From: Rickettsia typhi
GTDB taxonomy: Bacteria; Pseudomonadota; Alphaproteobacteria; Rickettsiales; UBA1997
DNA length: 64,000 nucleotides
Reading direction: 5' to 3'
NCBI GenBank assembly: GCA_945875925.1
Contig: CAMCME010000001.1
Coordinates: forward strand, 4,656-68,655
A program made the translations under genes and the position numbers. Positions 41,080 to 42,555 of this stretch are shown piece by piece. The notes under the pieces are model-generated. The model was not told the origin of the DNA, did no database searches, and worked only from the letters and a program-made list of their open reading frames with translations. How positions within the stretch are numbered: position 1 is the stretch's first letter; the number at the start of each line of letters is the position of its first letter.

Positions 41080-42555
41080 TTAATTTTTAGCAATTAGAAA
41101 ATTATTTTGCACTTCTACAACCTCTACTTCCAAGATCTCGCCCGATTTAAATTTTTCTGATTCGCCTAAAATTTTCACATCAATAAAATTTTCCGACTTA
41201 CCAATATTATCTTTTTCCACAATCATGGTAATTTTTTTACCAATCTGTTTTTGTAAAAATTTCTGCAATTCTTCTTGGCCCGCTTCGCGCAAAATTTTGG
41301 CGCGTTCTTTTATTATTTTATAATTTACTGGAGGCATCTTGGCGGCAGGTGTGCCTTCGCGTTTTGAATAAGGAAAAATGTGATTAAAAATAATTCCGGC
41401 TTCTTTAATTAAATTTACGCTATTTAAAAACATCCCATCTGTTTCAGTCGGAAAACCTGCTATAAAGTCAGCGCCGAAAGTAATTTCTGGCCTTAATTTG
41501 CGGATTCTAGAGCAAAATTCTAAAACTTGGCCGCGATTATGGCGGCGCTTCATACGCTTCAAAATCACATCATCGCCCGATTGCACACTTAAATGCAAAT
41601 AAGGCATAAAGCGCGGCTCGCTTGCAATTAGATCAATCATATTTTCATCAATCTCAGCCACATCAATTGAAGAAAGGCGAAGTCTTGGAAGCTCAGGAAC
41701 TAATTTAAATAATCTTTTAATCATTTGTGAAAGCGTGATTGGCGCGGCCAAATCTTCACCATAACCAGAAATATCTACGCCCGTCAAAACCACTTCTTTA
41801 TGGCCCGCAGCAACCATTTTTTTCACCTGATCAACAATTTCTCCAAAAGCCACCGAACGGCTATTTCCGCGACCAAAAGGAATGATACAAAAAGTGCAGC
41901 GATGATTACAGCCATTTTGAATTTCTAAAAATGCGCGAGTTCTATTTTCAAAATAAGAAACCAATTGCGGCGCGGTGTCTTTCACCGACATGATATCATT
42001 AACAATGATTTTAGAAGTTTCGCTGATGCTTAAAAAACTTGCAGAGTTTTTTCTATTTTCAAAAAAGATGCGGTCTTTGTGAGCGATTTCTTGAGATAGA
42101 GCTTTGCTTTCGTTAGATCCTGAAACAAGTTCAGGATGACTGGTTTGGTATTCAGGATTGCAGGTTTGAGAAACCTCCAGTTGAGCGGAGTCGAAACCAG
42201 CGGATGCTTCCTGCCTCAAAGCCCCATAACTCTCCGCCTTCGACTTCTCTACATTGCCAAGCACCAAATCCACTTCCACCATCTTCGCATATTTCTCAGG
42301 GTCAATCTGCGCCGCACAACCAGTCACCACAATTTTCGCATCAGGATTTTTTTTGCGCGCCCTTCTCACAGCTTGTCTAAGCTGCCTTTCGGCTTGCGAA
42401 GTAACTGCACAACTATTAAAAACGATAAGATTTTTTTGATCTGATTTTTTTAAGGCTTCTTTAATCGCCTCACTTTCATAGGCATTTAAACGACAACCAA
42501 AAGTTACGACTTCATTATTAGCTTTATTAGCATCATCCATGTCTTCTGCTGTCAT
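41080..42555 (-). CDS. mtaB: tRNA methylthiotransferase MtaB-like (radical SAM MTTase) with repeat-derived insertion
   Basis: N-terminal MTTase domain (FGCRLNAYES, FNSCAVT, VTGCAA), radical-SAM CNHRCTFC and a C-terminal TRAM-like region. The inter-domain linker is ~55-60 aa longer than I expect. Confidence 0.8.
   Translation of the reverse strand: MTAEDMDDANKANNEVVTFGCRLNAYESEAIKEALKKSDQKNLIVFNSCAVTSQAERQLRQAVRRARKKNPDAKIVVTGCAAQIDPEKYAKMVEVDLVLGNVEKSKAESYGALRQEASAGFDSAQLEVSQTCNPEYQTSHPELVSGSNESKALSQEIAHKDRIFFENRKNSASFLSISETSKIIVNDIMSVKDTAPQLVSYFENRTRAFLEIQNGCNHRCTFCIIPFGRGNSRSVAFGEIVDQVKKMVAAGHKEVVLTGVDISGYGEDLAAPITLSQMIKRLFKLVPELPRLRLSSIDVAEIDENMIDLIASEPRFMPYLHLSVQSGDDVILKRMKRRHNRGQVLEFCSRIRKLRPEITFGADFIAGFPTETDGMFLNSVNLIKEAGIIFNHIFPYSKREGTPAAKMPPVNYKIIKERAKILREAGQEELQKFLQKQIGKKITMIVEKDNIGKSENFIDVKILGESEKFKSGEILEVEVVEVQNNFLIAKN
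42061..42234. repeat. Palindromic-element-derived segment in-frame inside mtaB
   Basis: AGATCCTGAAACAAGTTCAGGATGAC (42115-42140) has the same core as 18901-18926. GCGGAGTCGAAACCAGCGG (~42185-42203) matches the arms of the 20247-20356 hairpin. Encodes ...SHPELVSGSNES... Confidence 0.7.

Follow-up and report, generated by a model that had tools for sequence, protein, structure and literature searches.

Pieces of two palindromic repeat families read in frame in the inter-domain linker of MtaB from an uncultured freshwater Rickettsiales bacterium

Introduction

The REP and REPIN elements of bacteria are mobilised by RAYT (Y1 HUH) transposases. Classical REPs carry a conserved 5′ GTAG, and REPs are usually lineage-specific. 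Bacterial MITEs (miniature transposable elements with inverted repeats) with translated intragenic copies include ERIC, the 107-bp form of Correia/NEMIS and YPAL (Delihas 2007, PMC2229807). The Rickettsia palindromic elements (RPEs) are found within protein genes, where they keep the frame (Ogata et al. 2000, summarised in PMC10969869 and PMC2229807). The RPE unit is a palindrome of about 105-146 bp with a long stem-loop and terminal inverted repeats, and it is described as Rickettsia-specific (PMC10969869; PMC2229807). Here we analyse mtaB in a 64,000-nt stretch of contig CAMCME010000001.1 (GenBank assembly GCA_945875925.1; the whole stretch is called the window). The linker between the methylthiotransferase (MTTase) domain and the radical-SAM core of its product contains pieces of two small palindromic repeat families, F1 and F2, in an open reading frame. 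The phenomenon is already known from the RPEs; the case described here is in an uncultured freshwater Rickettsiales bacterium. This analysis adds the recurrent colonisation of one enzyme linker by several repeat families, and hairpin cores with a cosmopolitan distribution.

Results

The gene and the repeat-related parts of the window lie at the following positions. Related loci and contigs are given by number (L001 and so on).

41080-42555, minus strand: mtaB, an open reading frame (ORF) of 491 aa; the database start is 5 codons later, giving 486 aa
42256-42510, minus strand: N-terminal MTTase (UPF0004) domain, aa 16-100 (Pfam PF00919, E 3e-19)
42082-42225, minus strand: hypervariable part of the linker, aa 111-158, between ..ESY and AHKD.. 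(120 homologues and 64 loci aligned)
42180-42214, minus strand: F2 remnant, the 3′ arm of a palindrome of about 100 nt, read (Q)EASAGFDSAQ (32/35 to an extragenic copy in L026)
42162-42176, minus strand: AGGTTT-CTC-AAACCT, a small hairpin where the F2 remnant meets the window-specific segment, read from the sequence and visible in the RNA fold
42088-42171, minus strand: window-specific 84-nt segment that replaces 18 nt, a net gain of 66 nt and 22 aa (DNA alignment with L001/L002)
42113-42155, minus strand: piece derived from F1, with a single terminal hairpin arm, GTCATCCTGAACTTGTTTCAGGATCTAA (8-bp stem, loop of 5), and about 14 nt similar to the element interior
41989-42084, minus strand: clade-wide conserved linker extension (AHKDRIFFENRKNSASFLSISETSKIIVNDIM), present in all crown-clade orthologues and not in L081/L083
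41407-41925, minus strand: radical-SAM core, aa 211-383, with C216-x3-C220-x2-C223 (Pfam PF04055, E 2e-25)
18898-18930, unstranded: extragenic solo F1-type hairpin with a 12-bp stem, between the ORFs 18475-18882 and 18957-20231
20239-20363, unstranded: extragenic full F2-type palindrome with 40-nt arms, 88% complementary, between convergent ORFs

An earlier sequence-only reading of the window had claimed that the linker DNA holds the core of the intergenic hairpin at 18898-18930, translated as SHPELVSGS, and we recovered this match. The 26-mer AGATCCTGAAACAAGTTCAGGATGAC at 42115-42140 differs from 18902-18927 by two mismatches, and 42115-42137 is identical to 18902-18924 over 23/23 nt (blastn-short E 3e-7 within the window; 0/100 shuffles match). 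The coding strand of the 26-mer reads S-H-P-E-L-V-S-G-S. A second motif had been matched to both arms of an intergenic hairpin placed at 20247-20356. This motif, GCGGAGTCGAAACCAGCGG at 42185-42203, has one mismatch to 20330-20348 on the minus strand and three to 20254-20272 on the plus strand, which are the arms of the palindrome delimited here as 20239-20363. Over 42185-42204 the identity with 20329-20348 is 19/20 (E 0.004), and the other arm matches more weakly. Neither similarity to the intergenic elements is lost under alignment statistics, and the 491-aa ORF runs through the repeat DNA with the frame open, as had been proposed.

Outside the window the matches extend to complete elements. 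The F1 arm in the linker is identical over 28/28 nt to L058 (E 4e-9) and over 27/27 nt to L008, in both cases to terminal arms of full extragenic elements, and the similarity of 42113-42155 runs into the element interior (36/42 to L008 12321-12408). A full F1 element consists of two inverted arms, tAGATCCTGAAACAAGTTCAGGATGACg ... cGTCATCCTGAACTTGTTTCAGGATCTa, 40-150 nt apart, each of which is itself an 8-bp hairpin. Full extragenic copies lie, for example, at L008 4125-4206, L008 12321-12408, L058 2152-2291 and L074 8460-8669. Copies of F1 are 85-210 nt long, with terminal inverted repeats (TIRs) of about 26 nt and a variable interior. Two of the full elements, L008 4125-4206 and L074 8460-8669, stand directly downstream of the mtaB stop codon; the L074 element is a source-like 35/35 match to the arm in its own linker, about 1 kb away. 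An F1 arm is also read as RHPELVLGS within a 406-aa ORF of L026 (5861-5887). F2 is a palindrome of about 100 nt, CCGyyGGTTGAGCGGAGTCGAAACCAnCGGAAGGTTCCTGC..loop..GCAGGAACCTTCCGnTGGTTTCGACTCCGCTCAACCnnCGG. It is extragenic at L026 3333-3434, and a diverged form is the window palindrome at 20239-20363. The coding-strand sequence AGTCGAAGGCGGAG (42233-42246, the conserved EKSKAE codons immediately upstream of the variable linker) resembles the F2 core, with 10/14 to GCGGAGTCGAAACC. This resemblance may be coincidental, or it may offer microhomology that cues an insertion or a recombination.

The limits of the insert were set by a sister allele. The mtaB genes of L001/L002 (JGI and Logan metagenomes) are 96.1% identical to the window gene in DNA (1340/1395) and have CCGCTGGTTTCGACTCCGCTCAA in common with it. 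In the sister, 66 nt including the F1 hairpin are missing, adjoining 18 nt that are non-homologous, and the window-specific segment is therefore 42088-42171. It translates as SQTCNPEYQTSHPELVSGSNESKALSQE. The F2 remnant at 42180-42214 is also carried by L001/L002 and is thus the inherited, older piece. Because the F2 half is common to the sister and the segment with the F1 half is absent from it, two half-elements of separate families and separate dates of arrival make up the insert, which is not one palindromic element. About 40 nt of the 84-nt segment match nothing, and the exact 23-mer CCTGAATACCAAACCAGTCATCC from its non-arm part had 0 matches in metagenome contigs when used to search for a donor.

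The product of 41080-42555 (minus strand), which includes ...VLGNVEKSKAESYGALRQEASAGFDSAQLEVSQTCNPEYQTSHPELVSGSNESKALSQEIAHKDRIFFENRK...FENRTRAFLEIQNGCNHRCTFC, is assigned as MtaB, the tRNA t6A37 methylthiotransferase, by its score of 434.5 bits against the TIGR01579 equivalog (cut-off 357.05), in which aa 17-478 align with model positions 2-415. The cysteines C21, C49, C80, C216, C220 and C223 are invariant across 75 homologues. For the TRAM domain there was no Pfam match at E<=0.01; the TIGR01579 alignment reaches aa 478, and the AlphaFold2 (AF2) model has a C-terminal beta domain at aa 441-490. The same allele occurs in three independent ENA assemblies (L003-L005; 1461/1461 nt, with DNA compared for L003 only). 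The insert is therefore not an assembly artefact. The nearest relatives in the genome collection are uncultured Rickettsiales metagenome-assembled genomes (MAGs) from freshwater lakes, with at most 76% aa identity, and the protein database holds at least 120 homologues of 69-100% identity and 451-517 aa. A predicted tryptic peptide of the window linker is QEASAGFDSAQLEVSQTCNPEYQTSHPELVSGSNESK.

The inter-domain linker had been judged roughly 55-60 aa longer than in other MtaB proteins. In comparison with the solved MiaB of Bacteroides uniformis (7MJZ) the excess is borne out: G100-K192 of MtaB, from the last strand of the N-domain to the radical-SAM domain, aligns with residues 117-149, that is, 92 vs 32 aa, or about 60 aa longer. 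In an alignment of 120 homologues, all length differences fall between the conserved ..GNxEKSxxESY and AHKDRIFF... We took the linker size locus by locus, from the anchor LGNxEK to the anchor NDIM. It is 26-28 aa in the distant Rickettsiales L081 and L083, 64 aa in the ground state of the crown clade, 69 aa in L001 and 91 aa in the window. Lineages with the ground-state linker, whose sequence SY.ENFxN....EKITNSDSDIAHKD... is conserved, are scattered over a neighbour-joining (NJ) tree of the MtaB core. Repeat-free orthologues are shorter in the linker than the window protein (64 aa vs 91) and do not have the F1 and F2 sequences.

Not all of the excess is repeat. About 36 of the approximately 60 extra residues belong to the conserved crown-clade extension HKDRIFFExKK..FLT..ETSKIKV, for which no repeat match was found outside MtaB genes and which has no sign of a repeat origin. 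Only about 27 are repeat-derived or lineage-specific. The insert had been placed at 42061-42234 and credited with the whole new peptide segment. Repeat DNA does lie within those limits, at about 42088-42214, and adds about 27 residues; 42061-42087 codes for the clade-conserved IAHKDRIFF, and the other excess residues, about 36, are the conserved extension.

The reading frames of the repeats bear on which copies are found in genes. In the "left" orientation the F1 arm has stops in all three frames (TAG at the terminus, or TGA), and in the "right" orientation it is open and reads RHPELVSGS or VILNLFQDL. The F1 copies in MtaB read KQVQDD, in which the TAG has become CAG, and HPELVSGS; several frames of F2 are open. 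The pattern agrees with a filter by which only stop-free versions are kept, and such a filter may explain the half-elements. Between the window and L001, dN/dS is 0.12 (dS 0.09) over 440 core codons and 0.89 (dS 0.38) over 25 shared linker codons, which indicates that the MtaB core is under purifying selection and the linker is not. In the AF2 model, aa 114-149 are without secondary structure, at pLDDT <50, and a helix spans aa 149-171; as modelled, the variable linker is probably a disordered spacer. The RNA fold of 42061-42234 (174 nt) is no better than that of shuffles (z -0.73, with 47/200 shuffles equal or better), which gives no sign of a selected RNA structure in this region. A terminator scan of mtaB found no terminator-like site, and Rfam gave nothing at the gathering threshold for the insert region, the single match (E 0.49) being meaningless.

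Related genomes show repeated colonisation of this linker. At least six repeat families are found in it over 64 related loci, namely those in which the linker can be delimited. A complete F1 (KQVQDD..HPEIVFES) is present in L008 and L013, and a single F1 arm in L074, with 35/35 to the element immediately downstream of that genome's mtaB. A complete F2 (VERSRN..GFDSAQP) lies in frame in L026 and L031, the L026 copy being 41/43 identical to an extragenic copy 2.8 kb away on the same contig; the F2 5′ arm alone is present in L007, L016 and L030/33/42/75. L006 carries F3 (FRFAQYD..HPERSEGS; 27/27 to L006 675-701), and L012, L021, L024 and L039 carry heptamer palindromes, F4 (28/29 between the L021 copy and L021 14934-14962). 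The partners in L074, L006 and L021 are, like that in L026, extragenic and on the same contig as the linker copy. The doublets GTCATCCTTGG..CCGAGGATCT (F5) occur in L009, L041 and L045, and the doublets AAAAGGGGTCAGACCCCTTTT (F6) in L010 and L040. Matches at the protein level only, for example PLPLRERVGVRG, hint at further families. The tandem-heptamer palindromes of F4 use different heptamers (GTCGTAA, GGCGATA, AAGTGGT), with perfectly complementary arms in each; they look like sister members of one architecture and not like compensatory change in situ.

Six unrelated families imply six or more insertion events, and in the NJ tree of the MtaB core the repeat-bearing lineages are interspersed with ground-state ones. 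The ground-state linker is ancestral and not a deletion product, because its sequence is conserved in scattered lineages. We counted palindromes as perfect inverted repeats of at least 10 bp with a loop of 3-150 nt, over 1.18 Mb. The variable linker has 14 over its 5.8 kb (2.4 per kb), compared with 1.33 per kb for intergenic DNA and 0.30 for coding DNA; the other long palindromes in the window are all intergenic. The load of the linker is like that of intergenic DNA or slightly higher, and a permissive site with the ordinary repeat load therefore suffices, without targeting.

The two families had been taken to be this genome's own. This does not hold, since the exact F1 26-mer and F2 19-mer recur in contigs of 28-60% GC. 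The F1 26-mer AGATCCTGAAACAAGTTCAGGATGAC is found in 19 IMG/VR contigs (L086-L104; 28-57% GC), usually as a solo hairpin beside other GTCAT-stem-loop-stem-ATCT hairpins. Doublets of the F1 arm, unannotated and in the opposite relative arm order, are present on plasmids of Sphingobium, Novosphingobium and Sphingomonas, for example at L105 3001-3135 on the Sphingobium yanoikuyae plasmid NZ_CP060123.1. The exact F2 19-mer core GTTGAGCGGAGTCGAAACC is in at least 120 metagenome contigs (L106-L225; 30-60% GC). Among the matches listed, 117/130 are outside ORFs of at least 150 aa, half have an inverted partner nearby, and 0/130 are in MtaB-like ORFs. Unconstrained flanks lengthen the F2 stem in 37% of the matches vs 13% after shuffling, with several pair types, so that the F2 module is a stem-loop with a fixed 12-nt loop, GAGCGGAGTCGA. 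A search for F2 on plasmids gave marginal Nocardia matches (E 0.9), which we attribute to chance. Likely in-frame copies of the same modules occur in unrelated proteins of other organisms (L135, L173, L198, L221), some reading GFDSAQP..VERSQ and others xVSTPLNQ. A literature search for the DNA cores and peptide motifs of these repeats found no publication. Of all the observations made here, the cosmopolitan spread of the two hairpin cores is explained least.

Comparison with known repeat systems

The resemblance to the RPEs is close in several respects. In both, small palindromic repeats are present in intergenic DNA and within conserved housekeeping genes, read-through is stop-free, the insertion is seemingly tolerated and not adaptive, and the hosts share an order, Rickettsiales. 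Elsewhere, full elements of F1 (85-210 nt) and F2 (about 100 nt) are within the size and stem-loop description of RPEs, and the copy in the window MtaB is not. The families are multi-copy. Outside genes they lie at 18898-18930 and 20239-20363 in the window and in L008, L058, L074, L026 and L016, and they are in frame in MtaB of many lineages, in the 406-aa ORF of L026 and, probably, in the unrelated proteins of L135, L173, L198 and L221. Restriction to one genus is contradicted by the exact cores at 28-60% GC and on Sphingomonadaceae plasmids. Unlike RPEs as they are described, the elements here are hairpin-arm modules with cosmopolitan cores. The window MtaB has half-elements only. One linker is struck by at least six families, which is not reported for RPEs in PMC10969869 or PMC2229807. 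We do not file the window element as an RPE, because it has no full 105-146-bp palindrome and its cores are not Rickettsia-specific.

F1 is like a MITE in its TIRs of about 26 nt, its variable interior and its copy length of 85-210 nt, and in having in-frame fusions solely in stop-free frames. TA flanks most F1 termini, although it is inseparable from the TIR. Unlike the ends of MITEs, each F1 "TIR" is itself a hairpin that also occurs solo, or in the opposite order on the Sphingobium plasmid. No insertion sequence with the same ends was seen for F1, without a dedicated transposase search. The likeness to REP/REPIN elements lies in hairpin modules of 25-35 nt that are mostly extragenic and often form inverted doublets making a longer hairpin, with singlets as relics. 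The conserved loop and variable, covarying stem of the F2 module are a further likeness. Unlike REPs, the modules have no GTAG head, those of the F1 type are framed by GTCAT...ATCT, and the F1 and F2 cores recur over 28-60% GC.

Discussion

We consider it very probable that the linker of MtaB in this freshwater Rickettsiales clade has undergone neutral, tolerated, RPE-like in-frame insertion of repeat pieces. The proposal of an in-frame, read-through insertion of repeat DNA, like that of the RPEs, is supported by the 28/28 and 32/35 matches of the arms and by a sister without the 66 nt. An unconstrained linker would accept small palindromic or hairpin repeats that otherwise fill intergenic DNA. 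In the older event it would have received the F2 palindrome of which the 3′ half, read AGFDSAQ, was inherited from an ancestor common to the sister; in the recent event, after the split from the sister, it would have received the 84-nt segment with one F1 terminal hairpin arm, read SHPELVSGS. Because the retained repeat frames contain no stop codon, the surviving pieces should be transcribed and translated as about 27 linker residues, and the catalytic domains remain under purifying selection. Mobilisation may have been by a non-autonomous MITE- or REPIN-like process.

Several points weigh against this interpretation. The 84-nt segment substitutes for 18 nt of the sister and does not plainly interrupt it, and about 40 nt of it match nothing. 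Each element is present as one arm, and transposition of a whole element into the window allele is not observed. There is no unambiguous target-site duplication, and no transposase was identified, no search aimed at transposases having been made. The independent events are read from a simple NJ tree that carries no support values. With a pTM of 0.58 the AF2 model is mediocre, and its confidence is low also at aa 187-223, so that low pLDDT is weak evidence for disorder. Translation of the insert and activity of the enzyme are presumed.

The 18 replaced nucleotides raise the question of how the 84 nt arrived. Homologous recombination could have brought them in from a divergent mtaB allele with a decayed F1 already in it, the conserved flanks ..EKSKAESY and AHKDRIFF.. 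acting as crossover sites. As an explanation of the whole this is doubtful, but it accounts for several details: the non-homologous nucleotides were replaced and not interrupted, a half-element alone is present, the flanks are highly conserved over the clade, and divergence is raised nearby (7/24 nt at 42202-42225; linker dS 0.38 vs core 0.09). Relaxed constraint explains the raised divergence equally well, however, and no donor allele was found among 120 homologues or 80 genome loci, nor any match to the exact 23-mer of the segment in the metagenome collection. Recombination would also alter the route and not the nature of the insert, since in either case DNA of repeat origin would be read in frame. 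Between in situ insertion followed by decay and replacement as routes of the 84 nt, the 18 nt and the local divergence somewhat favour replacement.

In window/L001, L007, L016, L026, L031 and L030/33/42/75 the F2 pieces share a reading frame and have similar positions, and the window remnant is clearly inherited. This would be accounted for if the clade ancestor had received one insertion, which lineages then changed to different degrees by decay, loss and gene conversion from extragenic copies, but such a history is improbable as a general explanation. One event cannot give at least six unrelated families, and the ground-state linker SY.ENFxN....EKITNSDSDIAHKD is sequence-conserved in scattered lineages. 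The 16-nt F2 cores are identical between lineages with saturated synonymous sites, and linker copies are close to extragenic copies on the same contig (41/43 in L026; 35/35 for F1 in L074). Two further readings go beyond a permissive site. One is that the MtaB linker is a preferred landing pad for cosmopolitan hairpin modules that repeatedly remodel protein linkers in small genomes, the modules being GTCAT-stem-loop-stem-ATCT or GGTT-GAGCGGAGTCGA-AACC, with exact cores found again in different phyla, and the mobiliser one that could be an undescribed REP-like system. We regard this as unlikely. The other is a selected function, either as mRNA structure at the domain boundary (pausing, stability, processing) or as a functional peptide or docking segment, and it is less likely still, even though linker palindromes are slightly in excess of the intergenic rate (14 observed vs about 7.7 expected) and the F4 elements of L012, L024 and L039 are palindromic despite their different heptamers. 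Many orthologues, including the 96%-identical sister, are without the element; half-elements too incomplete for the long stem are retained in the window, L001, L030 and L074; the 174-nt region does not surpass shuffles in its fold and has neither a terminator-like site nor an Rfam match; and the linker has a dN/dS of about 0.9 and a peptide that is entirely different between lineages. Chance similarity, low-complexity expansion or an assembly chimera is scarcely credible. The matched stretches are short (20-28 nt), but 0/100 shuffles match, E values run from 3e-7 to 4e-9, the matches coincide with defined arms of multi-copy elements, and the allele is identical in three independent assemblies (DNA compared for L003).

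This locus is a clean case, and one that can be dated, of repeat DNA turned coding in an organism that is not a Rickettsia, with a 96%-identical sister without the insert and a measurable contrast in selection. The inter-domain linker of a conserved radical-SAM enzyme acts like intergenic DNA toward mobile hairpins, which explains the length hypervariability of MtaB in the clade (451-517 aa). Such inserts inflate apparent protein novelty and can mislead domain-boundary or orthology calls in MAGs. The recurrent "peptide motifs" KQVQDD, HPELVSGS, VERSRN and GFDSAQ are nucleotide repeats and not protein domains.

Other repeats and RNase P RNA in the window

Intergenic palindromic elements from several families are dense in the window. 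A doublet family of the GTCATTTCGAGCGCAGCGAGAAATCT type has three copies, and an F5-type module (GATCCTCGG..CCAAGGATGAC) lies at 34446-34528. Long palindromes with TATACCAAA ends are found at 6641-6774, 9982-10110 and 43682-43842.

3881-3979, 4655-4727, 6448-6591, 9982-10110 and 12497-12623: intergenic palindromic elements
27611-27671, 32771-32892, 34446-34528, 36147-36246 and 43682-43842: intergenic palindromic elements
35683-36146, plus strand: RNase P RNA, class A (230 bits; 464 nt vs a 367-position model)

RPEs are known in Rickettsia M1 RNA, and by comparison we checked the 58-nt expansion of the P12 region (35844-35909) as a possible repeat insertion. There was no sign of this: L033, L020, L021 and L040 each gave a single similar match, most likely their own RNase P genes, and there was nothing else in the window. 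With single matches in relatives and none elsewhere in the window, the expansion is therefore probably a clade feature. The palindromic element at 36147-36246 follows directly after the RNase P RNA gene.

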